Positions 9,604 to 64,000 of a stretch of 64,000 nt of DNA are shown here, piece after piece. Below the pieces are notes generated by a model. The model saw only the letters and a program-made list of their open reading frames with translations. It had not been told where the DNA came from and did not search any database. A program made the translations under genes and the position numbers. The first letter of the stretch is position 1. Each line of letters opens with the position of its first letter. Source of the stretch: Betaproteobacteria bacterium (GTDB lineage: Bacteria; Pseudomonadota; Gammaproteobacteria; Burkholderiales; Burkholderiaceae_E); contig VGHA01000004.1 in NCBI GenBank assembly GCA_016868375.1, forward strand, positions 10,081 through 74,080. Direction: 5' to 3'.

Positions 9604-9608
9604 GGCCG

Positions 9609-20258: not shown

Positions 20259-20261
20259 GGG

Positions 20262-27323: not shown

Positions 27324-30300
27324 TCATGCATCCGTCCTTTCAGATTGCGTGCTGCCGCGGTCAACACTGGCTGAGTTCTCAAGCGAAAGTCTGACTGTTG
27401 GGTCAGCCGAAACCGCCGGGGCATCGGCCGGTAAACCCTGCTGCGGGTCAGTGGTCACCACCCCCTCCGCGGGTCGATCGAACCAGCGTGCCAGACGATC
27501 CGCCAGCCCGTGAACCACCCCGCCCAGGCGCGCACGAATCCCGGTAACTCTCAGCGCCGGCTCTGCTGGCTCGGACTCGGACGTGGTGGCCGGTGTTGAG
27601 CGATCGCTTCGCGGTGCCTCAGCCGGGGCCGCGCCCGAGTCAGGCGCTGAGCCTGGCTCCGGCGGCTGACCAGGCGCCGGTTCCGGCGTGCCAGCGGGCG
27701 CAGCGCCTGCCGGCGGCGTAACCGGCAGCACCGGCGCTGCGGGCGCTGCGGGCGCTGACTCCGACCGCGCGGCGGGACTGCGTGCAGCATCGCTGACCGA
27801 CTGCATGGCCACGGTCGCGCTGACGCTCTGCGATACCGGCTGGAGGACCGCCGAGACCGGACGCTGTTCCACCACCCGCGGGGCCGCTTCGGTAATCAGC
27901 GTGCTGCTGACCGTGACGGGCGTTGCGCTGCCGCGCGAGGCAATCACCTGCGTGATCGGAATCGCGGACTGGGCCCCGAGCAAGCCCTCGGTGACAGCTT
28001 GCAGGCCTGCCGAGAGCACGTTGGCCGTACTCGATGAAATCGTCGGCGATGCAAGCCCGGTGGTGCTCGCAGTCGCCCCGGCCGCGCCCGCTGGCTGCGA
28101 GAACAGGCCGCCCGACACGAGGCTGATCATCGATAAGGCTTCCTTCTCGGCGATCGCGGTCTTGCCCGCCAGCATCACCGATCGGCCGCTACGTGCCTCG
28201 AGCCGACCGGGTTCTATCCGCCCGGTTTGCGTGAGGAGCGCGACCCAGCCAGTGCGTGACTCGTTGACAACCCCGGCCGCGCCAATTCGAAGCCCCGTCT
28301 CGCCTGCCAGCACGATGTGCCCGCCGGAACTGTTGCGCGCTTCAACCGACCCCACGCTGACCCGCAGACTGGCCTCGCCAAACTGCCCGATACCGTTCAC
28401 AGCGGCCAGTTGCAGCGCCCGCGAGGTTCGAATATTGAAGGCCCGGTCGGTGGTTGAGTCGTAGATTGCGCCACTGCTGGTGACACGGATGGATCCGCTG
28501 CTGGATTGGATTCGCGCGATCCCGATGTCGCCATCGGCCTGCAAAGCGATGTCGCCCTCGGTGGTTGAAATGCTGCTGCCAGGTTCCATGACGATAGAAC
28601 CCGAGCTGGTGATGCGAACCTTGCCCATCGGCGCCGAGATGCCATCGACGACTTTCAGCGGGCCTTGAGCGTCGATGAAAACATCGCCGCGTTCGCTGAC
28701 CGCGGACACGCCCGCTGCCGCAACGGCGGCCGCCAGATCGCCCGCGGCGCGAATCCGCGCCAGTCCCGTGGTTCGGACCTGGGTGGTGGCGGCCGAATCA
28801 AGGTCCAGGGACACATCACCAGTCGCGGCAACCGTGACCGCCGCGCCGATCAGGCTCAAGGTTCCACCGATCCGGTTGGCTGCGTCATCGAGCACAATCG
28901 ACTGCGCCGCGGCACTGATGCGGCCACCGCCAGCGATCTCGAGTGCTCCCTGCTGGCGAACCGCACCCGCCGAATCAATATCGACCCGGCCGGCGAGACG
29001 ACCGCTGACCAGCAGGACCTCACCGTCTGCATCGGTACGAACCGAGAGCAGGCTGTTTGCCCCGCTGGCCTGCGCCGCCAGTCGCAGCGCACCCTGCGCG
29101 CGCACGCTGGCATCGCCTGACACCGCAAGCGACAGATCCAGCGGGCCCGCATCGCGGATTCGTGCAACGCCCGCCTCGATCCTCACCGGTCCGTCGAACT
29201 GGTTGTCGCCCCGTGACAGGTCGACAACACGCCCTGCTGCACGGACCTCGGTCGTTCCCGTGACCTTCGCGGCGCCCGTCTGTTCAACCCCGCCCTGCAG
29301 CAGGAGATCGCCTGCGATCTGCACTTCGCCCAGGCGGATCAGCCCCGATTCGCTCGCAAGCGAGGTGTTGCCGTCGACGCGAAGCGTTGCGGCCGACAGC
29401 GCTTCACCCTGGCTGATCGCAGACAGCCTTGCCTGCGCACCCGTTACCTTGCCGGACACTGCGAGACTGCCGCCAGCCCGCACCACCGCCGACGCAGACT
29501 CGTCAGCCGCCCGCGATGCATCGCTTTGCGACAGGTCGAGCGTCACCGCGACGTCGTTGCGGTCGGACAGCGACGCGGCGCGCCCGATCAGCGTCACCGT
29601 GGCGCCGAAATCATTGTCACTGCGATCAAGGATGATCTGGCCCTGCGCACCCGCATCCAGGCGGCTCGCGCCGCCGAGGGTGAGGCCTCCGGTCTGGCTG
29701 ATTGAGCCGCTCGCGTTGACCGCCATGATGCCGCTCATCTGAAGCGCGCCCAGGCTTGCCGCGGCGCCTGCCTGCAGCGTCAGATTGGCGCGTGACCCGG
29801 TCAGGCGGCCCTCGACCGAAGCGGCGCCCGCCGCCGTCAGCGTGACCGGGCCTGCCGCATCGAGCGACACGGTGAGCGCGTTCCGATCAAGGATCGTGGC
29901 CGCCCCCCCGCGCAGCGTGAGCCGCGAACCGAAGTCGTTGCCAGCCGCCGTCAGCACGGTGCTGGTTGAGCGAATCACCGCGTCGCCGCTTACCTGTATC
30001 TGCGTACCCTCGGCCTGCGTCAGCTGACCGGCCTCGGAGTCGATGCTGAGGCCACCCACATTGAGCGAGACCGCAAGCGTCACATCATCGGTATTGACGA
30101 TCGACAGCGTCCGGCTGCTGAGGGTGACGGCACCGCCCGCCTGGGCTGGCGTCGTCACCAGATCCGCTCCGGTGCGGCCTGCGATCGCGAGGCTGGCAAT
30201 TTCCAGGGCCCCGCCATCGACCGCCACGGTGCCAAGATTCAAGGTCTCGACACCGGTGAACGCGACCCGGTTAGCATCGCCCGCGAGCATGCCGTCTTTA

Positions 30301-36300: not shown

Positions 36301-39300
36301 CCGAACCGGTTGGCACCGGCGAGCGAGATTGCGCCGGACGCGGTGAAGCTTGGCGCGCCCGACACGATCATTGCGCCGGCAGTCGACTGGCTGATCGCGC
36401 CTGCGCTCGCGCTCACGCTCAAGGCGGTGGCGGTCAGGTTCGCATCGAGGCGAATGTCGCCCGCATGGCTGATGGTGAGCTGCTGCGCTGCCAGGGCTGC
36501 GCTGGTTCGGCCCAGCGCAGGCTCCATCGCGAGCGCGCGACCGGCTGCGCCGGTGATCGACACATCGCCCACCACCAGGCGGTTGAGCGCCGCATCAAAC
36601 TGCTTGGCCACCGAGAATGACTGCACGCCCGAGAGCTTGAAGCTGTTGGTATCACCCGCGAGCAGGCTTGCGCCAAACACGATCGTGACATCGTCGCTGG
36701 CAGCCGGCGTGATGGTGATCGGGCTGGCATGCGCATTGACGCCGCCGGCCAATCGCACGCCGCGGTTGAAGATGACCGATGTCGCGCCCTCGACCACCAG
36801 CCGGCCATTGCCATAGATCACCAGTTCGTCTGCGAAGGTGATGGTGCCGGTTGCCTTGATCGTGAGATCGCCCGCCACATAGACGCTGTCCTGGAAGTTG
36901 ACGTCCACCGCCTCGGTGATGCGCAACAGCTCCAGATCGATGATGCGGTTGGCCGTGAGGCTGAAGCCTTCGCCCGAGCCCGTCGTGTCGCCCAGGCTGG
37001 CGCGCGACACAGTGAGGACGTCGCCGGACACATAGCCTCCGCCCAGCGATTCCAGACTCACCGAGGTGACGACGCCATCGGTCACAACCATATGCGCCGT
37101 CGCGCCGGTTCCCGTGCCGCCAAGTAGCGGAACGCTGCTGTAAATTCGGCCCGCCGACGCGGTGGGCTCCACGCCCGCCGTACTCGGCGTCATCAGAACC
37201 GATGCGCCTGAGGCCGAAGCCGAAGCAAGCTTTGCACCCGCGGCCGCGCCGGTTGCGCGCGTGGTGAGCAACGCCGCCACCTTGGCGGCGATGTTGGCGT
37301 GCACCTGCTGCTGCGTCCCGCTGCCGCCCCCGGTGCCGTTCGCACTGAGGTCGTTGGCCACCACGGTGTAGACCACGTTGCCGCCTGCCACACCGCGCAC
37401 CACCACCTGATCACCGGCGATAAAGTCGCCCGCCAGACGCAGCCGGAAGGCATCGCCCTCGCTGCTGAGCGTGACCGAACCGCGACCCGCTTCGGTTGAA
37501 TACCCTGCGCCGCCCGTAAATGCGAAGTCGCCGTTCTCGAGGCTGCTGCCAATGCCACTGCCGATCCTGCCCTGCAGCGTGATGTCGCCGCCCAGCGCAC
37601 GCAGGGTGAGCGAGTCGCCCTCGAAGGCAGGCGTGCTCGGATCATCGACCCGGTCGCTGCCGTTGATGCGACCGGTGACGGTGAGATCAGGCGTACCCAC
37701 CGTGACGACGCCGCCCGAGGTCAAGGGAATGACGGTGGCCGTGACCGTGAACTCGCCTTCATTGCCCGCCTTGAGGCCGGTAAATCGAAGGCTCGTGCCG
37801 CTGCCGTCCACCGTGGCGCGCGCACCCGATCCCGGGTTGGCGAGCACGGTGGCTGCAGCCGCTCGCAGCCGCGCGGCAATGTTGGCAAGCGCCTGCGCGG
37901 GGGTGGCCGCGCCGCCGCCGCCCAAACCGTCAACCGTGAGGTCGCCGGCGGTAACGGTCAGCGTGATGTCGGCGGTGGCTGCGCCGCGTACGGTGATCTG
38001 GTCGCCCGCGACGAAGTTACCCGACAGATCGAGGCGGTATTCCTGCGCACCGAACACCGCGCTTCGTGCGGTATCGCCTGAGGTCAGCGTCACATCGCCG
38101 AAGATCCTGAGCGCGTCATTGATGAACAGGCCCTCGGTCATCTCAAGCTCGGTTCCGCCCGGCGCGGTACCGTCGAACTCGGTGGTGTTGCCCGAGCCCT
38201 GCACCTCGGTCTTGGTGCCCTTGATCTTTCCGCCAACCCGCACCTTGCCGCCATCGCCCTGCGCCTGAATCACCAGCGGTGTGCTCATCGCAAGCGAAGT
38301 GCCCGAACCGCCGAGCGCGACAGGGTTCGAGCCACCCGTGGCACCCACCACCAGCACAGGAATCGCGCTGACCTGAGAGGGATCGAGGCTTACGCCCGAG
38401 CCGCCCGAGCCGCCAATCGAAATGGGCGCATTGGGATCGGCGGGCTTCAACTGCAGACCCTGCCCGGCGTTTTCCGAGGCCATCTTGGCCAGCGCCTCGG
38501 CCGACAGCGCACCATCGACTTTCTGCGCAGTGACCACCTGCGGCGCACGATCAGCCGGGATCACCTTGGCGAGTTCGAACTTGGTTGTGGCGGCTGGCGT
38601 CGCGCGCAGCACCGCTTCGCTCAGCTGTACCGCGCCTGCCAGCGGGTCGCGAATCGAACCAAACACCAGCTTGTAGTAGCGGTAAGGCGTGGCGTTGGCA
38701 AAGGTGACCGCGCTGCTGGCACCGCGATCGGTGAGCAGGTTGGTGGGCGCATTGGTGGCCAGTTCAGTCCAGGCCCCGCTCGCCCAGGCAAGGTTGTCAT
38801 TCGCACCATAGACCGACACAGTCATCGGGTCGCGGCCCGGCTGATCGGCTGCGCTCGTCAGCACCAGCTCGTTGGCGGCGGCTGCCGTGGCAAGCGTGAT
38901 CGTGAATCCCGCTCCCGATTCGCCAATACCCAGATACTGCGTGCTCGCCCGAGCGTCGATGACATTCGACGCTGCGGTGGCCGGTGTAGCCTGCGGCACC
39001 GACACTTTGGCCTCGGCAATCTGTACCCGGCCAGCCGCGGCATCGCGTACGCCATTGAAGATGACCTTGTAGTAGCGGTAGGCGGTGGTGTTGCTGAAAA
39101 TCGCATCCACCGTCGCGCCCCGGGTGGCGGGCAGATTGGTGGCCTGATTCTCTGCGATCAGCGACCAGGCCGAATCATTCCAGCCCAGGTCGGTGTTCGA
39201 GCCGTAAACAGTAAAGCTGGTGGGATCGCGACGCGCGTCCTCACGCGAGGTGGTGAGCGTGAGTGACTTGGCCACGCCCGGCTGCGCGAGCGTGAACTTG

Positions 39301-42300
39301 AGCCCGGCATTGAGGTTGCCGAGGTTGACCTTGGGTTGCGCGGTGCCCGGTGCCACGTTGAAGGTTTGCAGTGTGGCGCCATTGGCCGCACTGCTTACCG
39401 TCAATTTGAGCGTCGATGCATTGCCCAGATACACCAGACCATCGGTGCGCGCGAAATAAGCGCCCAGCGCTGCACGGGTTCCGGTGATCACTCGGGCCGA
39501 ATCGCTGCCGTTCACCGAAATGCCCGGTGCGGGTTGAGCAAAGAACACGCCGCCCTGCGCACCGGTTTCGGTAATGGTGACCTTCAGGGTCTCGACACCC
39601 GCTGCGGCTGAGCTACCACCCAGCGCTGCGGCTTCCTGCGCAGTCAGCAGAACCACCCGTGCGGCAGGCGCCACAAAGCTGGTATCGGCGCGGCCGTCAA
39701 TGGCCGCGGCGGGCCCTGAATTCGATCCCGACAGCGCGGTGATCGGCGAGCCGCTCACCGTTGTGATGGCAGGCAGCGCTGCCGGCGCGGGCGACGCAAC
39801 GGCCGCGGTTGCCTCAAGCGATATCGCGCCGCCGGCGTGGTTGAGCAGCTGCCCTTCAAGCGTCAGGCGTTCCGACACATCAAGCGTGAGCCCGCCCACC
39901 ACCAGATCCGATTCGATCGCCAGCCGCTTGGCCACAATCCGCAGTTTGGTTGCGCCCAGGTTCATCGGCAGCTTCGTGCCCTGCGCGTCGGTGAAGCCTG
40001 CCAACCGGATGATGTCGCCCTGGATGACGAGCTGCCCCAGCGTTGAATCCCAACGCACATCCTCGACGCCCGACAGCATGCGGATCACATCCGGTGCGCC
40101 GTTGACGCCCACCGCGACTCGGCCGAGCTCAACCAGCGTGCCCTGTCCCGTGGACTTCGCGGGCTGGGGCTTCAGCGCAAGCGTCAGCGTGTCATCGGCA
40201 AGCAGCGACACGCCGCCCGCGCTCTGGTCCTTCAACGTGAAGGCGCGTAACGAGCCATCCGGCGAAACCGTATTGCCGAGATTGACCAGGGTGCGGTCCG
40301 CGCCCGCCGTTGCAGTCAGCGTGATGGGTGCGGCGCCCAGTCGGGTCATCGTGAAGCTGTCAGCCTTCGCGCCCAGACGCAGATCGTCAAGTGCGAATTT
40401 GGTGAGCCGCATGCTGGTGCCGCTCGGATCGATCACTTCCAGACCCGACCCATTGAACACCGCGTTGATGGCGCTCGGGCGCGTGACATCAAGCGTAATC
40501 GCCTGCTCGCGAACATTGCTGCCATCATCGACGCGCATCATCAGCGTGCCGGGCGGCTGCGTAAGAATCACCACGCCGCCGGTGGCGGTGGCGCGCACCA
40601 CAAGCGACCCGGCAGGATCGCCTTCCAGCGACTCAATGCGCAGCACGCTACCCTGACGCGATATGTCGGCGCGCAGGCCTTCCAGCGTCTGCGCCTGGGC
40701 GGCGATGCGTGCAGCGATATTTGCTGCAGCCTGATCCGCCGTGGCCGTTCCGCCGGTCCCATCCCCCTTGACCGTCAGATCCCGTGCTTCGACCGTGACC
40801 ACCAGGTCCGTCTTCGCAATACCGGCGACACGCACCGTGCTGCCCACCACGAAGTCGCCCTTCAGCTCGAGCCTGAACACATCGGTGGAGGTGAAGGTGA
40901 GGTTACCGGGTCTGGACAGGTAGTCGGCGATGGTGTCAGACGTGCCGGTGATCGAGAACGATTCGGCGGTGTTGCTCACCGACACCCGCGGCAGCGTCAG
41001 GCTGCGATTGATCGTGAGGCGATCACTCTGCGATCCGGTGACCTGAATGACAAGCGACTGGGCATTGCCGTCGTAGAGCACATTGCCCGCAGTGCCAAGA
41101 TAGCTCTGCAGCGCGGCCGCCGACCCCGTCACCACAACACGTCCCGCGCTTGAACTCGGGTTAAGGGTGATGCCCTCTGCCGGCTGCAGCGACAACGCGC
41201 CAAAGGGCAGCTCAGACAACGGCGTGCTGCCAGACCGCAGCGATACCTCGGCGATCTGCATGGCCGTGGCTCGGCTCGCATCACGCACCGTGGGGAACAG
41301 CACTTTGTAGTAGCGGTAGGCAGTGGGCTCGCCGTTGATCGCCACCGTGTTGCTTAAGCCTCGCCCACTCACCGCGCCGAAGGTGCTGCCGCTTGTAATC
41401 TGGGTCCAGCTGTCCGAGCCCCAGGCTGCAGAATCGTTGGAGCCATACAGCACGAAGTTGATCGGATCACGCTCGGGCGCATCGGCCGCAGTCGTGAACG
41501 CAATCGAATTGGCAGCCAGCGGTACCGGATAGCTGAACACCAGACCCGTGTTGGTCTTGTGATAGTTCAGGTACTTGCTGGCGGCCCTGCTGTCGACCAC
41601 GTTGGCCGGCCCCTCGCTGGCGGGCGAATTGGCGCGATCGGGCCAGGCGTTGGATGCACCCGCCACCGACACGCCCACCGCAGGAACGAGCACGGTGGCT
41701 GTCAGCAGATCGGGCAGGCGCGCCGGTATCACGCGGTCGGTCGCCAGTGGCGTCACCGTCCGGTCATCGTTCAGCAGATAGCCCAGCCTTGCGAAGCTGG
41801 TGGTGTCGTAACTCGATCCGCTGGTGACATTGCGCTGCTCATACTGGCGCAGTTCAAAGTAATAGCGTTTGCCCGCCACCATCGGCACCGCTTCGCTGCG
41901 CGCCGAACCGCTCGACTCCGAATCTTCGGCAAGCTTCACAAATGACGCACCGCTGGTGGCACCACTGCCCGAGGTCTCAAACCACAGACTTGCGCGGTCA
42001 TTGGCCTCGAGATCGAAGGTGTAGCTGCCGCTTACCTCGGGCACAAACCAGCCTGACAGCATCTGGCGCGCCTGACCGTTGTTGTCGATCTGCGGATAAC
42101 CGAGTTCGACTGAACCCGAGCGAAGCGCCAGGCCTCCGGTCGGGCCAGTCTCGGGTCCACTCACGAAACCAATGCCGCCACGATCGGTCGTGTAAGACAC
42201 GCCTGGCACCAGCAGCCCGGGCATCACCACATCGCGGTTCAGGCTGGCATCGAGATAGCCACCATCGGGCGGGAAGAAGGTGACCGTGACGAGGCTCGAG

Positions 42301-51300: not shown

Positions 51301-54300
51301 TCGTAATCCACCAGCTGTACGGGTGGCGCACCCGTGCCCGGAAGTCCGATGCCAATCCGGAAATCAAGCGCTGCGCCAATCTCAAGACCGATTCGCGCCT
51401 CACCCGACGTGTCCACCAGATCAAAGAGCGCCTCAGGCACCTCGACATTGGGCGCCGCCATCGCGATCAGATCAGCGAGCTTCAGGTTAAGGCCGAAGTC
51501 GCCCGCATACGCCGCCTCGAGATTCACGTCGATGAGAAGCTGCGTGGCACCCAAGGACAGATCGAACAGGTTGGGGCTGATGCCCAGCGCCTCTTCGATG
51601 ATCGCCTCGACCTGGTCGAGCGCGGCCGCGGGGGTGTTGCCCGCCGCCACGATGCGATCGAGGAATGCATCGCCCAGATCAAGGAGCTCGCCCAGCGATT
51701 TGTCGAGCACCGGCAGCGCCTGGTTGTAGAAGGGCTGATTGCCCACCACCTCATCGATCGTGGCGAGCGCAAAGCGCAGGCCCTCAACGATGTCACCGAA
51801 GCTCAGCTTGCTCAGATCGAAGAGCGAACCCACATCGGGCAGCACGACCGTGACATCGGAGGCACCCACGAGGCCGCCTGCGAGCGCTGCCGAGCGGTCA
51901 AAGCCCAGATTACGTTCACCGATCGCACCACTGCTGTCAGCAACACGAACCACCGCAGGCGTCACATTGAACGCACCCGCATCGCCCGCAACCGCTGCCG
52001 TGAGCTTGAGCGTTCCGCCATCGGCCACCGCGGTCACGCGCGCACCCTGCGCCGCGGTAACAAGCGTTGCCAGACGGCCGGCCAGTACCGATGCAAGCGG
52101 CGTGGTGACGTTTGCCGCTGCGATATCGGCTGCCGTGACGGTGTAAGTGAGATCCACCGCAGAGATACCGCCCAGACGCAGCACATCGCCGGCCTTGAAC
52201 GCACCCGTGAGCGGCAGGTCGGTGACCTGCTTTCTCTCCAGCCGCCTGGTGTCATCCAGGCGCGAGATCAGGGTGGGGGTGGATTCAAGCACCGTGACGG
52301 TGCTGAAGCGGGTGAGATCGGGCACGATCAGCGCCAGCTCAAGGTCGGGCGCAATCGAGAAGCTTGCGCCCTGGCCCCCCACCAGTTTCAAGCCGCGCAG
52401 GCTTGCCTCGGCGCTGCCCTGAACATCGAAGCGAACCGCATTCAGCCCCTCGGTCGAGGCCAGCTGCGCGAGCGTAAAGCGCGAGTCGCCAGCGGTCTGC
52501 TGGGTCGGGTCGCGATCGAGCGCGAACTGCACCGACGCATCGAGCGACACACCCGAGTTGGAGCCTGCGCCGCCCGCGGTCAGCCCCATGAATCCGAGCT
52601 TGGCGGCCACCGAGAGATCGGTGACCTTCAGATCAACATCTGCGCGCGCACGCAGCGAATCCAGGGCCACCTGGAAGCGTTCACCGCCCAGCGACAGGAT
52701 CAGATCGAATCCCGCATCGACATCAACATCGAGCTTGCCCTGAGCGCTGGTTGACAGGCTGATCGGCTGATCCTCACCGAAGCCCAGATCGATCGGTGTA
52801 TCAAGGCCAAGCAGGCGTTCGCGCAGCCGCAGCGGAATGCGCAGATCGCCGGTTGCGGCGCTATAGCTGATCGTGCCCAGCACCGGCGAGTCCTTGAAGG
52901 CCTCGTTGAAGGCGGCCACGAACTCATCGATGGTCCGAATGTTTTCGCGCCGCTCATGCACCCGGTATTGCACGCCCGTGCGACCGCTTGAATAGGCGTC
53001 ACGCAGCGTGAGCGTCGACCCATCTGCCGACACCGACACGATCTGCGTGGGCGCAAGCCAGCCGCTTTCATCGCCCGACAAGGTGATCCAGTAGCCGGCC
53101 ATCGATTTGGCGAACTGACCCGGCGCGCCAACCAGCGTCGAGCGGTTGGCATTCGGAATCTGCGCCGTGCCGCTGACCGCCGCCGTCTCGCCGACCGCTG
53201 CCTTCCACAGCTTGATCGGCCGGTAGATGTCGACCTTGTCGACGATCTCGCGCTTGAACACGCCTGCGAGATCGAGCAGACCATCCACGCCCTGCGAGAT
53301 GAACGGCAGATCATCGAGCCCCAGGCTTTCGGCGCTGACGCTCTCCAGGTACGACAGGATGCCCGGCAGCGCGAGCAGGAGGTCGGTGATCGTCATCTTG
53401 CTGATGTTGGTCAGCTGATCGAAGTTCTCCGTTTTCAGCTCGAACTTGCCGGCGAGCGGATCGCCGGTGAGCTTGGCCTTCGGCACCGTGCTGCCAGTGG
53501 CAATCAGATCAAAGCCCGCAACCGATGCGTAGAGCGGCAGCTCCAGATTGAAGCGGCTGGCGGTGGGGGTAAGCGTGAACACGCCGTTTTGCAGCGCCAT
53601 GCGGCCGCCCAGCGCCGCATCGAGGACGCCACGCGCCCAGGGCACCGCGGGCGTGATGATCTTGCCCGTGTCATCAAGCTTCGCGGGCTCGGCATCGCCC
53701 GCCCGGCCGATGCTGAGTGCGATCGGTCCCAGCGTCGCCTTCAGCACGATGTCGCTGGCAGTGAGCGCGCCCGAGAAGCTGAGGTCGTTCAGATTGAACC
53801 TGGCGCTGAAGCCGTCTTTCCAGCCAAGCGACAGATCGAAATCGAGTGCAGCCGAGAAATTCGCATCAAACAGCAGATCGCCTTCGATCTCCAGACCGAT
53901 GCCGCCCAGTTTCGAACCGATATCAAGCTTGAGGTCTTCAACCCGGGCGCTGATCGCGGCCTTCAGGCCCAGCTCGAGTCCGTCCTGGCTCAAATCGAAC
54001 ACCAGACCTTTGCCAGGGAACAGATTGACCTCGGTGACCTGCGCGCTGTTGGCCGTAGCCGCGTCGCGCAGCTTGGTGAACACCAGCTTGTAGTGGCGAT
54101 AGCTGTCGGTGTTGGCAAAGCTCACGGCACGGCTCGCGTTACGCGCCATCGTCAGACCGGTTTCAACGCCCGTGGCGATCGGCACCCAGCCGGTCGTTGC
54201 GCCCCAGGCGGGCGCGGTATCGCTGGCTGCGCCATAGATCGCAATTTCGACGGGATCGCGTTCGGGCGAGTCGTTGCCGGTGGTAAGCGCAAGCGAATCC

Positions 54301-57300
54301 ACCACGGCCGCATCCGACAGGGTAAAGACCAGGCCCGAGCCTTCCTTGTCGAAGTTCAGATACTTGGATGATGGCGAACCATCGATCGCTGCAGCCGCGC
54401 CTTCATTGACCGGCGAGCGGGTCGACGAGGCGGTGACCGCCGTGACCGTGGGGCCCGAGCGGTCGGCATTGGCCCATTCCAGATAGGCCTGCAGGCCGCG
54501 CACGGTGGGCACGCCCTTCACACCGAAGAACTCGACCGGCTGGTTGAGGTAGTCGAGCACCAGATCGCCAACCCGCAGATAGGGCGAGAGCTTGAGGATC
54601 TGATCCAGCGTCTGGTTGATGATCGGAAGCGGCGCGGCGTTGATAAGCTGCGCACGCACGCTGCTCATCTGACCCGCCACGGTGCGAAGCGCCCCGCCGA
54701 TCCGCCCGTCCAGCGAACCATCGAGGTTATCGAGCGCAAAGCGCGTGTCGCCATCGGCTGCAAAGGACACGTCGATGGTGTTGCCGGCCACCGTCACGCT
54801 GCGCTCAATCGGCGCGCCAGTGAAGTTGGCCCCCACCGACACTTCGCCAAACAGCGACTCATTGATGAACGGAATCGGTACCTTGGCCGTGGCATCGAGC
54901 ACGAAGGCAAAGCCTTCGCCAGGCAGCGTTCCGGTGGCGGCCGCGGGCGGCTGCGCAAACAGCCGCGCATCCGCAATATGCATGTATGACTTGCTCTGGA
55001 ACACCCCCTTCACCGTCGGGAACACCACCTTGTAGTGCGTGTAGGCCGTGGTGTTGGCAAAGGTGACGACATTCGCGGCGCCGCGGCCGTTAGCAAGCCC
55101 CGTATTGCCTGAACCCAGCTTCGTCCAGGTGTTGCTGGTCCAGGGGTCGGTCGCATTCGAACCGAACACCTCCCAGGTCTTGGGATCCCACTGCCAGATG
55201 TCGTCGTTGGTGCGCGTGGTAAGCGCAAGCGAGTCAAACACCTGGGGCGCATCGAGCGAGAGCGTGTAGCCCGAGCCAGGCCCGGTCTGGTTCAGATACT
55301 TGGTGGCGGGATCGCCATCGAGCGCGTTCTCCACCATTTCATTGGCGGGCGATTGGCCCGGTGTGCTGGTAAGCCCGCCCGACTGCATTTCAAACAGACG
55401 CGCCTCGGCCAGATGCAGATAGGCCTTGCCCTGATAGAAGTCCTTGATGGTGGGGAACACCACCTTGTAGAAGCGATACGGCGTGTCATTGGCAAAGCTC
55501 ACCACGCTGGAAGACCCGCGCGCATTCGCAAGACCCGTGTTGCCCTCGCCCAGTTTCACCCAGTCGGTGTCACCCCAATCCACGCTGTTGTTCGATCCCC
55601 AGACCTCCCAGGTCTTGGGATCCCACTGCCAGATATCGTCGTTGGTGCGCGAGACCAGCAGCATCGCGTTCATGGGCTTCGCCTGCGGCAGCGCCACGGT
55701 GAAGCCCGAGGTCGGGCCGGCTTTATTCAGATACTTGGTGGCGGGTTTGGCATCGTTGATGCCCGACACGCCTTCGCCCGCGGGCGATTCGCCCGGCGAG
55801 GCGGTGAGCGCGGGTGCCGCAAGCGGCACCACCACGCCCAGACGTCCGTCGATGATGCCGGCGGTCTGGCCGGCAAGCGATACCGTGGCCTCGAGCCCGC
55901 TTGCGCCAATCAGAAGCGCGCCGCCCGGAACCACTTCCAGCGACAGGTCCGCGCGGGCCGACACGATGGGGGCCGAGTCGGCGGCCGCATCGGGCGCGCG
56001 CACCTGAAGCGCCACCGAACCGGCAGCGGCAAGCGTGCGCAGGCGGGAGTCGAGCGAATCGACGATCTCGCCGCGCATGCGAAGCGCGGTCGAGCCTGAG
56101 AGGCCGTCGCCATCGATGTCGCCCTGCGTGAAGTCAGCCGTGAGCCCGGCCAGCTCGCCCGTGGTGGGCCCAAGGTTGAGCGACAGATCAAGACCGCCCG
56201 CGCCCAGCGTGAGGCCCGGAACGCCCTGGAGCGCAACATTCTGTGCGCCCGCATGGAGGCCCACGAAGCTGCCGCCACCGCGAACATCCGACAGGAGCGC
56301 AAGCCCAAGCGATCCGCCTGTCAGCGATACGCCGATGAAATCTTCTTCCGATCCGGCATTGACGCCCAAGCGGACATCGACGTTGCGAGCGGCAATGAGC
56401 GTGGTGCGCATCGAGCGACGCTGGCCGTCGCTCAGCGTGACGGTGCGGCCACCCAGCATCGACAGCGCGAAGCTGCCGCTTGCGGTCACATAGTCGGCAA
56501 TGCTTAAGGCTGCATCAAGCGTAAGCGTAGTGAACTGTCCCGCGTCCACGCTGTAATCCAGCGACACCGTGGCATCGGTGGCAAGGTTGGTCTTTACCGC
56601 AATCGAGCGGTCGATGGTCTCGCCATCCACCTCGGTCACCGAGAAATCAACCACCGCGTCGTTGGCCACACCCGCGCGGCTGCCGATGGCGCGGTTGGTT
56701 TCAAACAGGAGCGAGTTCGCCTCGAGCGTGAAGAGCTCGGCCGGCAACCCCAGCATCTCAGCGCTTACCGACACCGCGTCGACCTCGGCGCGCACCGCAA
56801 GCCAGGCGCGTTTGTCGAAATCGGGCCCATCGAGCGGCCGCATCAGCGCCGCGGCAAGGTTCAGCCCTTCCACCGCAATGCCCTGCACCTGCGCCGAGAC
56901 ATCGGAGGCGCCAATCAGGAAGGCCTGAACAAATTCGGTGCGGCCGGCAACCGTGACATCAAGCGTTTTGCGCGATACGACCACCGAGCCTTCGACGCGC
57001 AGGAAGTTACCCACGCGAACCAGCATGGAGCCGCCCACCTCAAGGACTTCCTCAGTGAAGTCGAGCGTGATCGGCGTACCGGTACCGGGTTTGAGTGTGA
57101 GCGGCGCGGCTTCCCAGTTGATGGTGTTGGTGTTGCGGCCGCCCTGCGGATCGTCGCCAAAGCCGAGGTTCAGATTTACCGCGAGGTTGCTGCCCATCAG
57201 GGCAAGGCCATAGCGCTCAAGACCCACCACGCCGAGCGAGGCGGCGCTGCCCTTTAGCGCAAGGAAGCTTCGGTCATCGTCGACCGAGTCTGCAAAGGCC

Positions 57301-60300
57301 AGCGCGAAGTCGAGATCGGTCAGTTCAAGACCCACCGCCTCGTCGCCCGAACCGGTTGCAATGCGCGCATTGATGTCGGCGCCTGCGAGCACCAGCATCC
57401 GGGCCAGCACCTCCTGGGTCTCGCCGCCCTCGACCAGCGTGGTGACGGTACCGGCTGCCGCCCAGGCTGCGCCATAGCTTGGCACCACCAGCTTGATGGG
57501 CTTGATGTCGGTGCCCGCGAGGCTGCCGCCAAAGCGAACCACCGGGCGATCGCCGTCGGCTTCGGTCGCAACGCTGACCTGCGCGCCGGGCACGGTGTCG
57601 ATCGCTGCGTTGATCGCGTTTTCAATCTGCTGTGCGGTTTCGGTGACGTGGATGTCGCGCGTCAGATACCGCGCACCATCGATCTCGATCACCATGCGGT
57701 ACCAGTTGGCACCCGATGCAGCGCCGGTCATCACCTCGACAACCTGCTGCTCATCGGTGGCATCGGTGAGCGTGACCATCCGCTGGTACTGCTCGAGCTG
57801 AATGCCGCCGGAGAGGCTGAGCATGCCGGCTACCGACACATCAACATCGCCGCTGACACGCAGCAGCTGGCCAAGTTCCGATGACATCGCGAGATCGATC
57901 GTGCTGCCAGTGCCGGTGCGGATCGGATAGGCTTTGCTGCCGGCAAAGTTGATCACGCGCTGGTCAGCGTCCACGCCTGCCGGCAGTCCGCTGACACGAT
58001 TGATTTCCACCTGGAAGCTGCGCGCGGCCAGCGTGACATCGGGGATGCCCACCAGCTCGACTGCGCCCGCCTGCGCGGTCAGCGCCGTCCAGCGAACACC
58101 GTTCAGCGAATTGCCCGCCGAGTCTTTCTGACCCGGCTGCGCGCTGAACAGACCCAGACCGACGTTCACCTCGGTCATCGATACGCCCACCGCCTCGGCA
58201 TTGACCGTGTCGGCATCGATTCGATACGGTCCGTTCAGGCCCGCGAAGGCGTTGATATCGGCTGCGCCGATCGCAAGCGAATCGACCTTGACCTGCGTGC
58301 CATCGTCGATCGTGACGGTGCTGGTGCGCTTCTCGAAGCCCGCGCTGCCGTCCAGATAAACATAGTCACCGATCGCGATCGTAAAGCCCGCGGTCACCGA
58401 CAGCATCTCCTGGTCGGCGCCATCGATCGTCATGGTGCGACTGCGATCGGTGCCCGTGGTGACGTTGACATCGCCGGCCGCGAAATCGATGACCCGACCC
58501 GTGGATTTGTCAGCGAGATTGACCTTCACCGTGGCATCGCGCACCTCGAGCGTGAGGCCGTTGACACCCACCACCGCCACACTGCCCGCTTCGGCTTCGA
58601 CCGCAACCCGTGTGGCAAGCGATGCGCCCGCCACGGCGAGTCGTGCACTGAACACGCCCTCGCCGTCGGCCGCTGCAATCAGCTGGCTGCCATCGGCCGA
58701 CAGCGCCACCGAGCGCCAGGCGCGCGTGCCGGTCTCCAGCACCATCCGCCAGCTTGCACCGCTGTCCTCGCTCACCCAGATACCGCCGGTCTTGCCTTGT
58801 GCCGCAGCAGCAATCACTCGCCCGTTGGCCGACAGCGCTACTGAGGTCCAGGCGCGCGGCGACTGCGTGGCCACCCACTGCCAGTCGGGGCTCGAGGTGT
58901 TGGCGACCCAGATCTGGCCGTCGACTGCGGCCGCCACCAGCGTGGTGCCGCTTTCGCTTGCCGCCACCGCCGCCCAGGCCGTATCCGCCGGCGCATTGCG
59001 GGTGACATCGGTCCAGGCCACCTGATCGCCCGCCATCGGCGAGAGCGACGCGGGCACCGCAGAACGCAGCAGCTGCGCCTCGGCGATCTGCATCGCCTCA
59101 AGCCCTGGCATGCCGCCCTTCACGGTGGGGAACACCACCTTGTAGCTGCGCCAGGCCACATCGTTGGCAAAGCTCAGGAAGCGCGAAGAACCCTGTGTGT
59201 CACCCAGACCGGTGTCACCGGAACCGAGCAGCTCCCAGCCTTCGTCGGTGAACGCCTGCGCCGAATCCGAGCCATACACCTCCCAGGTGGTCGGATCCCA
59301 GGACCAGAGCGGGTTGGAGAGCCGCGACACGAGCAGCAGCGTGTCGAGCGCCTCGGGTTCGGCGAGCGTGACCGCATAGCCCGAGCCATTTGCCTCAAAG
59401 TTGAGATAGTTGGTACCCAGGTTGCCATCAGTGGCCTTGTCGACCGCCTGATCCACGGGCGAGCCGCCCGGCGAACTGAACGGCGCGCGGAACAGCTGCG
59501 CCTCGGCAATCTGCAGGTAAGCTTTGCCGCCCGAGACGCCCTTCACCTCGGGGAATACGATGGCGTAGTGCTTGTAGGGGGTGGTGTTGTCGAACATCAC
59601 CACGCTGGACGAGCCGCGCGCGTCGGCCAGCAGCGTGTCACCCGAGCCCAGCTCGGTCCACACCGCATCGCTCCAGCTTGCGCTCACGTTGGAGCCCAGC
59701 ACGCGCCAGGTCTTGGGATCCCACTGTGCGGGGCCATCCTTGGCGGCGACCAGACGCAGCGCGTTGAACGCCTCGGGGGTGTCAAACGACAGCGTGAAAC
59801 CGCTGTCAGCACCCGCCTGGTTCAGATACTTGGTCGCAGGATTGCGATCGTTGACGTTGCCAATGCCCTGATTGGCAGGCGAGGCGCCAGGCGAGGCGGC
59901 CGTGGTCATGCCAAGCGCCTCGGGCACCACCACCGGTGCGGTGCGGCCCAGTCGCGCTTCAGACAGATGCATATAGCGCTTGCCGCCCACCGCGCCCTTG
60001 GTGTCGGTGAAGACCACCGCGTAATGCTTGTAGGCCGTGTCGTTCGCAAAGCCAACCTGGCTTACCGAGCCGCGTGCATTGCCAAGCCCCGTGGCGCCAG
60101 CGGCCACTTCGGTCCAGGTGCCCAGCGGCCAGACGCCGCTGTTGTCGCCTGAATCATTGGAGGCGAACACCTTGAAGGTTTTCGGATCCCACTGCCAGTT
60201 GTCGTCGTTGGTGCGCGACACCATCGTGAGCGAATTGAACGCGTCTGGCTGGTCGAGCGTGATGACAAAGCCGCTGCCTGGACCGGCGAGATTCAGATAC

Positions 60301-63300
60301 TTGGTTGCAGAATTGCCATCGAGCAGACTGTCCACGCCCTCACCCGGGGGCGAGCTGCCCTTGATCGGCGAGATGGCCTGCACCACCGCGGGCGACGAGC
60401 GCGCCGCCTCAAGCTGGCCGATAAAGAGGCCCGGGTCGCCGCTTTGCCAGACGCCCGAGACCGGGTTGCCGGCTGCGGCAAACATCGACGAGCCCGCACC
60501 GAAGGTATCGATGGCGGTAAAGCGCGCATCGCTGCGCGGGGCAAGCGCATCGGCAAAGCCCGCCTGCGTGGATGCGTCACCAATCGAAACGGTGCCCATC
60601 GCGTCGCGATAGGTGGCGGTATTGGCCTGCTCAACACCACCCGAGCCCAGCGGATTGCCGCGGGAATCAATGTCGGCCACCACGGTGATTCGGATCGCGG
60701 GCCGGCCGGTTTCGCCGGTGAAGCTGAGCATGGGCCCACTCTGCGACACCACGGCGCTGGCGGTGGTCTGCGCACCCAGCATGCGTGCGAGGCCTGCTGC
60801 GATATTGACGCGAATCTGCTCGGGCGTACCGATCTGGAAGCCGCCCTTGCCGTTACCCACAATCAGATCGGCCGCCGTGACGGTGTAAGCCACGGGCTCC
60901 TCTGAGAAGCCCGTCACCATCAACACGTCGCCGATCGCAAATCGGCCGGTAAGGAGCGCAAACTCGGTGTTGCCGAGCGCCGCGCGATCAAAATCGCCAA
61001 AGTTGGTGCGCGGCTGGTTCACCACCTTCCAGCCAAACAAGCCTGGCTGGCTGACCGGATCGACCGGACCCTGCAAGGTCCACGGATCGATCGCAGCCCA
61101 GCCGGCTGCGCCATCGCGGGCTTCCAGAATGATCTGAGCACCCGAGCCCAGCGCCCGAACGCTGGTGGACTGCGCATTGATCTGTGCGCGAAGCGATGCG
61201 GCAAGGGACGCATTCAGCTGCGACTGCGAAGGCGGTGCGCTGCTTGCCGAGCGCTGCGGCACGGTCACCCGGAAGGTCTCGAGCGATGCGCCCATCACGC
61301 GAAGCCCGATCACATCGCCCGGCACAAAGCGGCCCGAGATCTCCAGCACATCAAACTGCACCGCCTCGAAGGTGTCGGTGACCGCGATGCGGTCGCGCGA
61401 CAGCATTGCAACATCGGTGTAGGGCGCGGCGGCTGCGCTGGTGAGACCCCAGCTTTCGCCACGATCGGTGGAGGTGACGACAAAGCCGTTCGCCATCACC
61501 GCGGCAATCATGTTGCCGTCCGACGAGATCGAGACCGCGCGGTAATCGCCGCGCGGCGCACCGGCATCGCGCCAGCTCAATCCCTGGTCATCCGACAGAT
61601 AGACGCGACCCGCAGCACCACCCGCCACCGCGACCTGAATCGCGGGCAGGGTTTGCGCGCCAACTTTGCTGGTGCCCGAAATCGCCACATCGGTCCAGGC
61701 AATCGGGCCGGACAACACCTGCTGAACGGCCTCGCGCTCGGTGGCGATCACCAGTGCAAGTTCGAGATCGGAGAGCACAAAGCCCGTGGCATCGGGCCCG
61801 GGCACAACGCCGCCGCCGCCGTTTATGCCGGCGAATGCCGACAGGTCGCTTGCGCCTACCGTGAGGACATCATGGGCGCGCCGCGAGCCATCCTCGAGCG
61901 TGAGCATGCGGGTGGATTTTTCGAAGGCAAGCGAGCCTTCGGTGGCGAAGAAGCCGCCCACGCGCAGCTGAACCTCACCGCTTGCGCGAAGCAGCTCGCC
62001 CCGATCGGAATCAATATCCAGCACGCGGCTGGTTCCGGTCCCTGTCACCACCGAGACGGGTTTGGCCTTCAGATCGAGCACGCGGGTGCGGCTGTCCATG
62101 CCCTCGGGCAGGCCGCTCACCTGATTGACTTCGACCAGCAGGTTGTTGGCCGCAATCGAGACCTGATCACCGCCCACAAACACCACCTTGGCGGCCGATA
62201 CTTCGAGCGCGCTCCAGCGCGTGTCGGCATAGGCGTCCATGCCCAGCCGCTCGGCCGTGCCCAGCGTGGCCACTTCCGCACCCGACAGCGGACGCTCCCA
62301 GAGCGCGAGCTTGCCAACATTGAGCGGCGCATTGCCGAAGTTGTCATCGGCAAAGAACAGCACCTTCGAGCCCAGCGTGTAGCGGGCTGCGGTGCTGGTG
62401 GCGCTCGCCACCAGTTCGCCATCGATGTAGAGGCGCTTGGCACCGGCTTCGCTCACGAACACCACGCGCTGCCAGCGGGTTTCGTCGATGGCTGTGCCGA
62501 GATAGCCCAGGCCGTCACCGCCCGATCCATTGCCCAGCAGATCGGAGTCGCGATGAATGAAGAGCTCGCCGTCGTCGGCGTTGGTGCCGCTTGTCTGCAG
62601 CAGGCTGCGCCACAGCGCCCGGCTGTCCTCGGGCGACTGAATATCGAACATCACCGTGTAGTCGGCGAGCGGCTCAGCATTCGAGCCACGGTCCAGCATC
62701 AGGTAGTTGCCTGGGCCTGCGGCGGTGGTGATGACCCCGCCCGCGCGTACACCCACATCATCGGTGAGCGCCGCATGCTGCTCGAGCGCGCTGAAGAGCC
62801 GCGCTTCGGACAGATGCAGATATTTTTTGCCGCCCGACACACCCTTGGTGGTCGGGAACACCACCTTGTAGTACTGATACGACGTGCTGTTGTCAAAGCC
62901 CACCACGCTGGTGGCGCCTCGCTCGTTGCCGAGGCCCGTCTCGCCGCGACCCAGCCTCGTCCAGCTGGTGGCATTCGCCCAGCCGGTTGCCACATTGGTG
63001 CCCCAGACCTCCCAGGTCTTGGGATCCCACTGCCAGATGTCGTCGTTGGTGCGGGTGGTGAGCGCAAGCGAATCGAGCGCCTGCGGCTCGGCAAGCGCAA
63101 GGATGAAGCCCGAACCTGGACCGGTCTGATTCAGATACTTGGTGGCGGTGTTGCCATCAGCAAGATTGGCGACCCGCTCGTTCGCGGGCGACGTGCCCGG
63201 CGACGCGATCAGCGTGCCGACCGCGCTCGCCACGCGGGTAAGCGACGGGCCGTCTGCGATGCGGTTGGCCAGCACATCATCGCCCGGCACAAAGTCATAC

Positions 63301-64000
63301 ACGCCGATCGCGCCCGCTTCGGCGGTAAAGAGCGTGTCAGCGTCCTTCGAGGGCGCCATCAGGGCGAGCGCGAACTCTGCATCCTGCAGCACAAAGCCGC
63401 GTGCATCAGCATTCGGCGAATCCAGGCCATCGATGACGCCATCGCCATTGCTGTCGGTGAAGTAGCCGCCACCAATGCCTGCAAACGCATTCAACCTGCT
63501 GCCACCCACCGACAGCGTGTCGGCGGTCATGCGCGTGCCGTCGGCAAGCTGCACATTGGTGGAATATTTTTCGAGCGCGAGCGTGCCGCGTGCCTGCACG
63601 AAGCCACCCACCTCCAGTTCAAAGTCGCCCGATGCGCGCAACGACTCGCCGCGTGCGCCGTCCAGCGACAGCTGCGTGGTGCTTCGATAGCCGGTTGCCA
63701 CCGTAAACGGCGACGCCGAGAAATCGACCACCTGCTGATTGGCAAGCGTTCCCGGTGTGATGTTGCGAACCAGGTTCACCGCCACTTCCAGGTCGCGGCC
63801 CGTGGCCGTGATGGTGGGCACACCGACCAGCGCGGCTTCTGCCACGCGCGCCTCAAGCGCCACCCAGGTGCGGCCCGCGTTCAGATTCACGCTGCCCGAC
63901 GCACCGGCCTCGCCCAGCGTGCGCTCAAAGCCCAGCACCAGGCCAAACTCGCCGCCCACCGCCGAGACGCCCAGCGCATCCGGGTTCACTTCATCGTCGA
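27324..64000 (-). CDS. Giant modular surface/adhesin-like protein, partial (at least 12,221 codons; N-terminus beyond the window edge)
   Basis: A single stop-free reading frame runs from the window edge to TGA at 27324-27326. The tracked GTG at 63989 is only the first start-like codon, because the frame stays open upstream (..[10 protein letters not shown]..). Recognisable domain families recur in-frame throughout. Confidence 0.95.
   Translation of the reverse strand, partial: [12224 protein letters not shown]
27546..27779 (-). repeat. Pro/Ala-rich low-complexity linker near the C-terminus of the giant protein
   Basis: Sequence is [56 protein letters not shown]..., followed by a 73-aa non-repetitive tail. 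Confidence 0.8.
28150..36960 (-). repeat. FHA/S-layer-like beta-helix repeat region (about 15 degenerate units of roughly 105 aa, i.e. about 320 nt)
   Basis: The recurrent unit is ..GG.L.V.G.VSG..SDL.V...GA..LG.L.V.G.L...S.GAVTQTGAL.VGG......AG..ITL....N.FGG.V...G..V..RD..AL.L.. . The N(D/R)F(G/D/S)G motif is seen about 15 times. Confidence 0.7.
34640..35490 (-). repeat. Tandem duplicated Ig-like modules inside the beta-helix region
   Basis: There are two copies of a roughly 95-aa unit (P.I.R.D.PA.G.Y.AGR.M.F...F.E...I.TA.G.P.L.L......R.A.Y......S.T.K.FRYTVPA....). They are separated by a second Ig-like unit ([43 protein letters not shown]). Confidence 0.55.
38605..39340 (-). repeat. Two divergent discoidin (F5/8 type C)-like domains
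   Basis: Motifs are ...[30 protein letters not shown]...QIAEAKV and ...[30 protein letters not shown]...QLSEAVL. Confidence 0.55.
41230..47200 (-). repeat. Array of 5 PA14-like domains interleaved with 3 discoidin-like domains and conserved linkers
   Basis: PA14-like cores (..[14 protein letters not shown].L....DDSAELW.D.SG.G....R.A.........W......S......G..YRFE.L.KEG.G.DF..VGY) lie near 46720-47200, 45950-46450, 44740-45215, 43500-43975 and 41720-42230. Discoidin-like units lie near 45450-45860, 44235-44650 and 41230-41640. The supermodule period is about 1.24 kb. Confidence 0.65.
42405..42940 (-). repeat. Asp-box/BNR-like beta-propeller block
   Basis: The block has repeated W..V..S.DG....AA..G.......D.G..W blades (e.g. 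[14 protein letters not shown]). Confidence 0.5.
47215..47480 (-). repeat. Asp-box/BNR-like block
   Basis: The block contains [14 protein letters not shown] ... [14 protein letters not shown]. Confidence 0.55.
47985..48340 (-). repeat. RTX-like (hemolysin-type Ca-binding) glycine-rich nonapeptide block, internal to the protein
   Basis: Sequence is DLGDGNDLF...[20 protein letters not shown]...[38 protein letters not shown]...[12 protein letters not shown]. Confidence 0.7.
54010..55800 (-). repeat. Three tandem discoidin-like domains
   Basis: The units lie near 55385-55800, 54950-55365 and 54010-54430. The first two carry ATKYLN..GP.SG....[17 protein letters not shown].GSN...YKVVFPT.K...H.A.ARLF. 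The third has the ERDP variant. Confidence 0.65.
58560..59035 (-). repeat. Asp-box/BNR-like beta-propeller block
   Basis: Sequence is [47 protein letters not shown]...[14 protein letters not shown]...[19 protein letters not shown]. Confidence 0.5.
59060..60360 (-). repeat. Three tandem discoidin-like domains
   Basis: The units lie near 59950-60360, 59485-59900 and 59060-59475. Each has the ..DG....YLN...GSG....WDP.T..V.GS......YK...F...KG......EA.L pattern. Confidence 0.65.
61385..61715 (-). repeat. Asp-box/BNR-like block
   Basis: The block contains [15 protein letters not shown] ... [13 protein letters not shown] ... [13 protein letters not shown]. Confidence 0.55.
62250..62780 (-). other. 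LamG/concanavalin-A-like lectin domain (Laminin_G_3-like)
   Basis: The segment reads ...[25 protein letters not shown]...[26 protein letters not shown]...[36 protein letters not shown], which is the typical W..V....LY.DG..V....F.G.....A.W...LS..E pattern. Confidence 0.55.
62790..63200 (-). repeat. Discoidin-like domain (most N-terminal copy in the window)
   Basis: Sequence is [29 protein letters not shown]...[21 protein letters not shown]...[13 protein letters not shown]...LHLSEARLF. Confidence 0.65.

Follow-up and report, generated by a model that had tools for sequence, protein, structure and literature searches.

We analysed a stretch of 64,000 nucleotides (nt) of contig VGHA01000004.1 (assembly GCA_016868375.1, positions 10,081 to 74,080), called the window below. 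The host is a freshwater Burkholderiales bacterium of the free-living freshwater type with no known partner. One side of the window is filled by a single open reading frame (ORF), which encodes the C-terminal 12,224 residues of a giant protein and runs out of the window with its N-terminal part. Downstream of it on the same strand lie six genes for proteins of export-related families and an ORF of 732 amino acids (aa). The genes concerned are as follows.

27324..63998, minus strand: giant ORF, C-terminal 12,224 codons and stop, N-terminus outside the window
25526..27160, minus strand: TolC-like outer-membrane duct (OEP, 544 aa), by domain search
24390..25526, minus strand: HlyD-type periplasmic adaptor (378 aa), by domain search
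22444..24390, minus strand: adaptor with N-terminal GAF domain, one transmembrane segment and HlyD domain (GAF-HlyD, 648 aa), by domain search
20262..22433, minus strand: M50-type intramembrane metalloprotease fused to a HlyD adaptor (M50-HlyD, 723 aa), by motifs
18237..20258, minus strand: short SecA paralogue (673 aa) with NBD1, PPXD and NBD2, by alignment and motifs
17448..18221, minus strand: SapC-family protein (257 aa), E 2e-70
15099..17297, minus strand (15099..17426 with the leader region): 732-aa ORF, paralogue of the N-terminal domain of giants with a LEPR-type leader, 37% identity

The longest stop-free run of the window lies on the minus strand between 63998 and the stop codon at 27324-27326 and measures 36,672 nt; the runner-up in any frame reaches 3,093 nt. 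The frame holds 12,224 sense codons and is still open at the window edge at 64000; counted from the first in-frame GTG it gives 12,221 aa. The two alternative frames of the same strand contain 286 and 327 stops per 12,224 codons, and at about 2.5% stops per codon the probability of such a frame arising by chance is about 1e-134. The G+C content of the window is 65.6%, and within the giant frame it is 0.78 at the third codon position against 0.53 at the second. The part of the protein encoded in the window has a computed mass of 1.244 MDa and an isoelectric point (pI) of 4.6, contains no cysteine and is rich in Ala, Gly, Leu, Ser, Val and Thr. We found no segments resembling transmembrane helices in it: the maximum Kyte-Doolittle value of any 19-mer is 1.8 and falls in Ala/Val/Gly-rich strands.

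We scanned genome contigs with the first 300 aa of the giant protein in the window. Orthologues were recovered from metagenome-assembled genomes (MAGs) of Burkholderiales, with identities of 95% over the 300-aa query for the closest (L001; 92.5% by BLASTP over aa 1-533), 75% for L002 and 51% for L003. More distant relatives came from Rubrivivax-type MAGs and from Magnetococcales including Ca. Magnetaquiglobus chichijimensis. The homologous frame was open from end to end in all seven proteobacterial loci (L001-L007), each of which runs off its own DNA, and the protein database that we searched held no full-length copy. The L002 locus is colinear with aa 1-3635 of the giant protein at 72.7% identity and then continues upstream for a further 3,425 stop-free codons, so the whole giant protein is probably at least 15,649 aa long. 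The ratio of nonsynonymous to synonymous substitution rates (dN/dS, Nei-Gojobori) is 0.10 in the comparison with L001 and 0.24 in that with L002 (3,613 aligned codons, 0.16-0.34 across all 500-codon bins). The giant frame is under purifying selection and is a real gene.

These results bear out most of what the original prediction, made from the letters of the sequence, had said of the frame: a single stop-free ORF of more than 12,221 aa that is a real gene, an N-terminus beyond 64000 (the frames of the orthologues are open upstream as well) and a product of roughly 1.2 MDa. It missed the more than 3,400 aa of extra length, the downstream export cluster and the existence of a comparable class that has been studied. 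As a way in which the frame might prove false it had named collapsed repeats. Tandem Repeats Finder detected only four short arrays in the DNA, and identity among the protein repeats inside the frame is no more than 24-67%, which makes a collapse of repeats unlikely. Colinear support from independent assemblies, at 52-99% identity, extends over aa 1-7439, 8473-10433 and 10744-12224. This cover stops at aa 7440-8472 and 10434-10743, where modules were gained or lost or the loci end.

The giant genes cast long antisense shadows. In the window, shadow ORFs lie on the plus strand at 60906-64000, 50772-52754 and 44244-46019, the longest being 3,093 nt, and at related loci they occur on the minus strand at 12601-22016 (L010) and 13953-22031 (L020). 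Public annotation calls such shadows as genes in L010 (2,078 and 2,862 aa) and overlooks the giant gene on the plus strand of L020.

The domain architecture was mapped by combining Pfam with local iterative hidden Markov models (HMMs), which gave the following parts, all on the minus strand.

62268..62666, minus strand: LamG_3 / concanavalin-like module (aa 445-577; Laminin_G_3, PF13385, 34 bits against a cutoff of 27.6), one copy
38607..63191, minus strand: span of 12 discoidin/CBM32-like modules (module A, about 131 aa), by 12-copy profile
37155..63878, minus strand: span of modules of unassigned type (B, C and D), by local HMMs
47250..54059, minus strand: non-repetitive conserved core (aa 3314-5583, about 2,250 aa), by colinear alignments
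47952..48320, minus strand: internal RTX beta-roll (aa 5227-5349), GGxGxD at aa 5248, 5286, 5313 and 5331
41769..47192, minus strand: PA14 block, 5 copies (aa 5603, 5853, 6261, 6675 and 7282) between discoidin-like modules, by Pfam
28857..36926, minus strand: C-terminal beta-solenoid of 19 DUF5649 repeats (aa 9025-11714), by Pfam and local HMM
27327..28223, minus strand: C-terminal tail, with conserved blocks, linker, helix and acidic end

Read from the N-terminal side, the modules begin in the order B, A, LamG, B, D, C, C, A, A, A, D, B, B, B, B, A, A, A. There follows the non-repetitive core, which has one inserted C and ends in the RTX roll and a D, and then PA14, PA14, A, PA14, A, PA14, D, PA14, A, C, A, A, C, C; the 19 DUF5649 repeats and the tail complete the chain. 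Module A carries the motif DG[ND]xxTKYLN and starts at aa 270, 1216, 1373, 1513, 2738, 2883, 3195, 6053, 6455, 7458, 8208 and 8338. Single copies score at most 23.5 bits against the gathering cutoff of 27.8 for F5_F8_type_C_2 (PF22633). The profile built from all 12 copies matches the CBM32/discoidin-type accessory domain of the GH92 mannosidase 7nsn with E 6.6e-13, and an orthologue (P0001) is named discoidin domain-containing in the database.

The PA14 assignment (PF07691) is clear, with 123.4 bits against a cutoff of 24 and E 8e-36 in 5 stretches, and the fungal adhesin model GLEYA also matches this region with 84.5 bits. In lectin-type PA14 domains such as those of Flo5, Epa1 and MpIBP, a motif of two consecutive Asp residues holds Ca2+. 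The corresponding GDDSAELW with its Asp-Asp pair is kept in four of the five copies, from which sugar binding can at most be predicted. The RTX roll matches CyaA (7usl) with E 7e-10 and stands alone, about 6,900 aa before the C-terminus; neither Pfam nor NCBIfam gave any RTX match in the last 4,224 aa.

The remaining 16 modules are of beta type; among them B occurs in six copies (aa 41, 591, 1795, 1966, 2241 and 2395), C in six (aa 881, 1011, 3924, 7706, 8652 and 8849) and D, which has Asp-box motifs, in four (aa 740, 1659, 5488 and 7064). Sequence and profile searches of the PDB with B and C returned nothing below E 0.1. NCBIfam applied to the whole giant yielded only RTX-type matches and a weak, below-cutoff F510_1955 glycosylhydrolase match (26.3 against 175 bits, about aa 5529-5594) inside module D. 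To judge from its domain families, the protein has the composition and modules of an extracellular protein that binds Ca2+. The protein had been described as a multi-lectin surface fibre with discoidin, PA14 and LamG modules. The modules named are indeed present, as 12 discoidin-like, five PA14 and one LamG copies; they account for only about 2,500 of the 12,224 residues (about 20%), their glycan binding and the surface fibre are predictions, and the RTX roll, modules B, C and D and the core had been overlooked.

The core is the most widely conserved part of the giant protein, with 70-79% identity in the Burkholderiales relatives; in Magnetococcales the identity is 42-47% along some 2,200 aa. 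When aa 4033-5230 are aligned to five relatives (A8), the mean column identity is 66%. Neither as a single sequence nor as a profile did the core find any relative in Pfam, NCBIfam or the PDB (nothing below E 0.1). We conjecture that it is likely the functional centre of the protein, and it may be a new functional domain.

The C-terminal quarter, i.e. the last approximately 3,000 aa, is predicted to form a beta-solenoid, in agreement with the beta-helical stalk proposed originally. DUF5649 (PF18886) scores 420 bits in 16 stretches with Pfam, and the local HMM raises the count to 19 copies. An AlphaFold2 (AF2) model of aa 10194-10753 has a mean pLDDT of 94.6 and short strands only, a pattern typical of solenoids, as judged without inspection of the coordinates. 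Foldseek against the PDB gave nothing significant for this model, the best hit being RsaA (E 0.18), with EtpA and HxuA also among the hits. In the tail, conserved blocks at aa 11926-11949 and 11990-12017 precede a Pro/Ala-rich linker that starts at about aa 12074, a conserved amphipathic helix (LRVTGIRARLGGVVHGLADRLARWFDRP, aa 12149-12176) and an acidic end. P0127, P0128 and the otherwise unrelated giant of L018 have a similar ending of linker and helix.

No terminator was detected between the stop codon of the giant gene and the OEP gene. In M50-HlyD the motifs expected of an M50 protease, HEFGH at residue 214 and NPLLRFDGY, are intact and are accompanied by about six segments resembling transmembrane helices; the domain scores 25.4 with Pfam against a cutoff of 27.2, and its best NCBIfam match is the daptide HExxH protease (195.9 against 300, E 1e-57). 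On these motifs the protease is apparently active. The GAF domain of one HlyD adaptor precedes its transmembrane segment and is cytoplasmic; it is kept in L017, L018 and L019, and one may speculate that a small ligand controls the export apparatus through it.

The short SecA has the Walker A and DEAD motifs and scores below all SecA and SecA2 cutoffs of NCBIfam (best 530.6 against 862). The window protein aligns to residues 33-603 of the approximately 800 of B. subtilis SecA. Going by established SecA structures, a protein whose alignment ends there would lack the parts that couple SecA to SecY, namely wing domain, two-helix finger and C-terminal domain with its tail. We searched for an ABC transporter and found none in positions 1-27323 of the window and none at seven related loci (L010, L016, L017, L018, L019, L020 and the P0015 contig).

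The short SecA is a member of a large family, and we sampled the gene context of eight independent loci of this family. In six of the eight, the set of OEP, HlyD, GAF-HlyD, M50-HlyD and SecA adjoins a giant gene. The isolate Azohydromonas australica encodes a giant of 13,168 aa, and all six of its accessory proteins are 51-66% identical to those of the window. On the P0015 contig a partial giant is accompanied by the same set, its SecA being 76% identical to ours, and synteny with the window extends as far as the housekeeping block (thiamine pyrophosphate enzyme, hemE, priA and uvrD/rep; window 1-14788); a LysR gene is found there at the place of the 732-aa ORF. Giants of 22,385 aa (L017), 11,747 aa (L018) and 14,336 aa (L019) stand beside the same set, as does an uncalled giant frame of at least 3,123 codons on the plus strand of L020. 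Searching from the side of the giant independently recovered the order of giant, OEP, HlyD and an adaptor of about 640 aa (L016).

Two gene orders were observed. In one, as in the window, the giant comes first; in the other, the cluster is followed by a conserved gene of about 310 codons and then by the giant. Over its first 2,768 aa, the Azohydromonas giant shows no homology to the window giant at E 1e-5, which means that the passengers differ even though the export clusters are orthologous. The giant gene is thus genetically linked to the set of TolC, HlyD, short SecA, M50 and SapC genes in several lineages and in two gene orders. The gene set is conserved and apparently undescribed; our literature search did not find a paper on the SecA/M50/HlyD/TolC combination, whether on a SecA-like protein with HlyD/TolC or on one with a site-2 protease or a giant protein.

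The protein of about 306-320 aa between the short SecA or SapC and the giant was seen in L010 (12739-13701), L017 (12034-12954) and L020 (12028-12957); it has no Pfam match, is 32% identical between L010 and L017 and is absent from the window. At the two sampled loci with reduced sets, the short SecA is accompanied in L012 (7836-15347) by an M50-like protein together with an RND pump (ACR_tran), and in L013 (9219-12022) by nothing but a 252-aa HlyD-like protein.

The giants of cluster-first loci share an N-terminal leader that consists of Met, a basic stretch and then VE[KR]LEDR[IV]LLSA[ED]P. The Azohydromonas giant passes the NCBIfam model NF012209 (LEPR-XLL, 'LEPR-8K') with 21.6 bits against a cutoff of 17, and the same motif is found on the giants of L017 and L020, so that all three giants with a readable N-terminus carry a LEPR-XLL leader.

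The 732-aa ORF of the window, which follows the SapC gene, matches residues 33-744 of the Azohydromonas giant at 37% identity. An exhaustive search among 1.84 billion representatives yielded 57 relatives of it, and the leader was present in all of the approximately 30 whose N-termini were inspected. In the window the leader is degraded: it is encoded upstream of the called GTG and preceded by no in-frame start codon, and in comparison with P0165 it shows a 1-nt deletion after the ATG and an exchange of L for S inside the motif. The same degraded sequence recurs in an independent JGI contig (L015) of 99.95% identity. The ORF could be what is left of a second giant gene in decay, a paralogue without a leader or a site of slippage. 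The AF2 model of its domain (pLDDT 85.8) shows an all-beta body with long strands, and Foldseek against the PDB found nothing significant for it (best HxuA, E 0.047, TM-score 0.09).

On balance we think it probable, with some reserve, that the window frame encodes the C-terminal 12,224 residues of a very large exported surface protein that has a dedicated six-gene exporter and displays its lectin modules. The six proteins would build an envelope-spanning exporter of tripartite type, dedicated to the giant protein, in which the short SecA takes the place of an ABC transporter as the motor. It would bind the basic N-terminal leader of LEPR-XLL type and drive the chain, still unfolded and with its N-terminus leading, into a membrane complex that has M50-HlyD as its base. 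By analogy with C39-peptidase ABC exporters and with the M50 proteases of leader-peptide systems, M50-HlyD would serve both as the inner-membrane partner and as the leader peptidase. The chain would then leave through the tunnel of adaptor and TolC and fold outside with Ca2+. The linker and helix of the tail would hold the C-terminal solenoid as a stalk close to the cell, and the lectin-type modules and the core would be exposed at the far end to bind glycans on particles or other cells. That this amounts to a previously undescribed pathway, a TolC/HlyD system powered by a wing-less SecA, with an M50-adaptor as leader peptidase, for LEPR-XLL proteins of 10,000-22,000 residues, is a possibility which we put forward tentatively.

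Several observations weigh against this proposal. All three giants with a leader are in the cluster-first order, and no N-terminus has been seen of a giant in the giant-first order to which the window belongs. The leader of the window giant is assumed from its relatives, its own N-terminus lying beyond 64000. We infer, rather than observe, the contact of the short SecA with the giant, the cleavage of the giant by M50 and the direction of export, and the surface location, Ca2+ dependence and glycan binding are predicted from domain families alone. Two loci with a reduced set, L012 and L013, have no giant gene within 10 kb, hence the short-SecA family is not restricted to giants. The order of the tail differs in the L019 giant. 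Lastly, other parts of the genome could contain an ABC transporter gene.

The last point leads to an alternative in which the giant is a classical type I secreted RTX adhesin like LapA, MpIBP or SiiE. An ABC transporter from another part of the genome would export it, the C-terminus leading, the genes beside the giant would contribute no more than the adaptor and the TolC duct, and the short SecA and M50 would serve some other purpose. SapC is known from the type I secretion operon of the Campylobacter fetus S-layer. The occurrence of this family beside the giant would fit such a system, as would the adjacent TolC and HlyD genes, the RTX roll, the lack of cysteine, the acidic pI and lectin-type modules like those of MpIBP. 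Yet neither the window nor the seven related loci have an ABC transporter, the lone RTX block lies about 6,900 aa from a C-terminus whose last 4,224 aa lack any RTX match, the giants of the cluster carry a conserved leader at the opposite end, and the short SecA gene, the M50-HlyD gene and the giant gene vary together. Taken together, this makes the classical route unlikely. A different function is conceivable as well, namely that the protein is no adhesin and works as a contact-dependent delivery device which is moved into a neighbouring cell with the core as its payload, as proposed for the proteins Cag_663/665 described below. The features of that class, a LEPR-type family, a C-terminal beta-helix and sapC/tolC neighbours, are shared. 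Conservation of the 2,250-aa core greatly exceeds that of the lectin modules, and no relatives of its fold are known. However, the likeness is one of described features, the host is a free-living freshwater-type Burkholderiales bacterium with no known partner, and injection is itself a preprint hypothesis. We regard delivery as improbable.

The six-gene cluster might also export something other than the giant, for example a small peptide with a leader, as is the case for the M50 proteases of daptide and epipeptide systems, and the giants would then adjoin it by coincidence or through shared regulation. The daptide protease as best, albeit below-cutoff, NCBIfam match of the M50 domain could be taken in this sense, and L012 and L013 have a SecA/M50 or SecA/HlyD pair and no giant gene. 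Against this stand the adjacency in six of the eight sampled loci, in two gene orders and with unrelated passenger domains, and the conserved leader of the giants; no gene for a small precursor was seen in the cluster. Another substrate is for these reasons highly unlikely. There is next to no chance, in our opinion, that the frame is an artefact, i.e. a chimeric or collapsed assembly, a chance ORF in GC-rich DNA or a dead gene. The source is probably a metagenome assembly and aa 7440-8472 and 10434-10743 lack independent colinear support, but the chance probability of about 1e-134, the dN/dS of 0.10-0.24, the domains along the whole length, the colinearity of several independent assemblies (52-99% identity) and the absence of near-identical repeats speak otherwise.

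Moving a single polypeptide of more than 1 MDa across the two membranes of a Gram-negative cell is an open question. The routes known for giant adhesins are type I secretion driven by an ABC transporter and two-partner secretion. The recurrent combination of a giant with TolC/HlyD, a truncated SecA and an M50-adaptor in the absence of an ABC transporter is a concrete candidate for a different export route, and the isolate Azohydromonas australica, which has the 13,168-aa gene and the same cluster, may permit genetic tests. The cluster also gives a genomic context to the LEPR-XLL giants of the Chlorochromatium symbiosis, whose export is unexplained. We consider the conserved SecA-containing export cluster without an ABC transporter and the large conserved core without known relatives to be the leads of higher value.

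Compared with known systems, the window giant shares with the exoproteins of two-partner secretion (FhaB, CdiA, EtpA and HxuA) a long beta-solenoid shaft. These exoproteins are also the nearest structural neighbours of both AF2 models, although not at a significant level (Foldseek E >= 0.047, TM-score <= 0.31). No Fil_haemagg repeats and none of PF05594, PF13332 and PF05860 were found in the window giant, where the secretion domain of such proteins would be N-terminal and beyond the window, and the window has no gene for TpsB/Omp85. On the features within view, the giant does not belong to two-partner secretion. The S-layer secretion operon sapCDEF of Campylobacter fetus likewise combines a SapC-family protein with adaptor and outer-membrane duct in the service of a large surface protein, but sapD is an ABC transporter there and the window locus has none. 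With the RTX adhesins (LapA, MpIBP, SiiE and FrhA) the giant has in common its very large, Cys-free, acidic, modular and predictedly Ca2+-binding chain with lectin-type modules (PA14 in MpIBP) and the neighbouring genes of TolC and HlyD type. It differs from them in its internal RTX block without a recognisable C-terminal signal, in a beta-solenoid stalk instead of Ig-like repeats, in an export that is probably dependent on an N-terminal leader and in the lack of an ABC transporter at the loci examined. Two of these features, the C-terminal RTX/signal and an ABC transporter encoded with the adaptor and the duct, set it apart from the type I secreted RTX adhesins as a class.

In the survey of fibrillar adhesins by Monzon et al. 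2021, DUF5649 is on the list of stalk domains and is never combined with a known adhesive domain (PMC8286594). In the window, the DUF5649 stalk is joined with PA14 in one polypeptide (28857-47192), which also contains LamG and discoidin-like modules. As far as its predicted domains go, the giant protein is a fibrillar adhesin by the definition of these authors and a counter-example regarding DUF5649. West-Roberts et al. described giant proteins of Omnitrophota and actinobacteria that contain the SecA DEAD and preprotein-binding modules without scaffold and wing in the same polypeptide (bioRxiv 10.1101/2023.11.21.568195). Those proteins have many transmembrane helices, whereas in the window the SecA is a separate protein of 673 aa and the giant has no transmembrane segments. 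By analogy, their SecA domains may be an independent hint that giants recruit a private motor of SecA type.

The closest described class, as judged by described features, is that of the Chlorochromatium giant proteins. Cag_663 and Cag_665 (formerly Cag_0614 and Cag_0616) of Chlorobium chlorochromatii, the epibiont of 'Chlorochromatium aggregatum', have LEPRxLL N-termini, sapC/tolC neighbours and C-terminal parallel beta-helices of 12,000-14,000 aa, and no export signal is known for them (bioRxiv 10.64898/2026.03.19.712371). They are expressed, leave the cell and are transferred to the partner cell; the authors propose a Sap-like type I route and do not mention a short SecA, M50-HlyD or GAF-HlyD (bioRxiv 10.64898/2026.03.19.712371). 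The window giant differs from them in its PA14, discoidin-like and LamG modules, which are unreported there, and in its betaproteobacterial host. It resembles them in its giant size, the long C-terminal beta-helix, the sapC and tolC neighbours, the relatives in magnetotactic bacteria and the lack of a classical export signal, and here LEPRxLL is found only on the giants of orthologous clusters. It is also very long and repetitive, as LEPR-XLL giants are, with 12,224 aa in the window. We place the giant protein provisionally in a known and barely studied class, the LEPR-XLL giant surface proteins.

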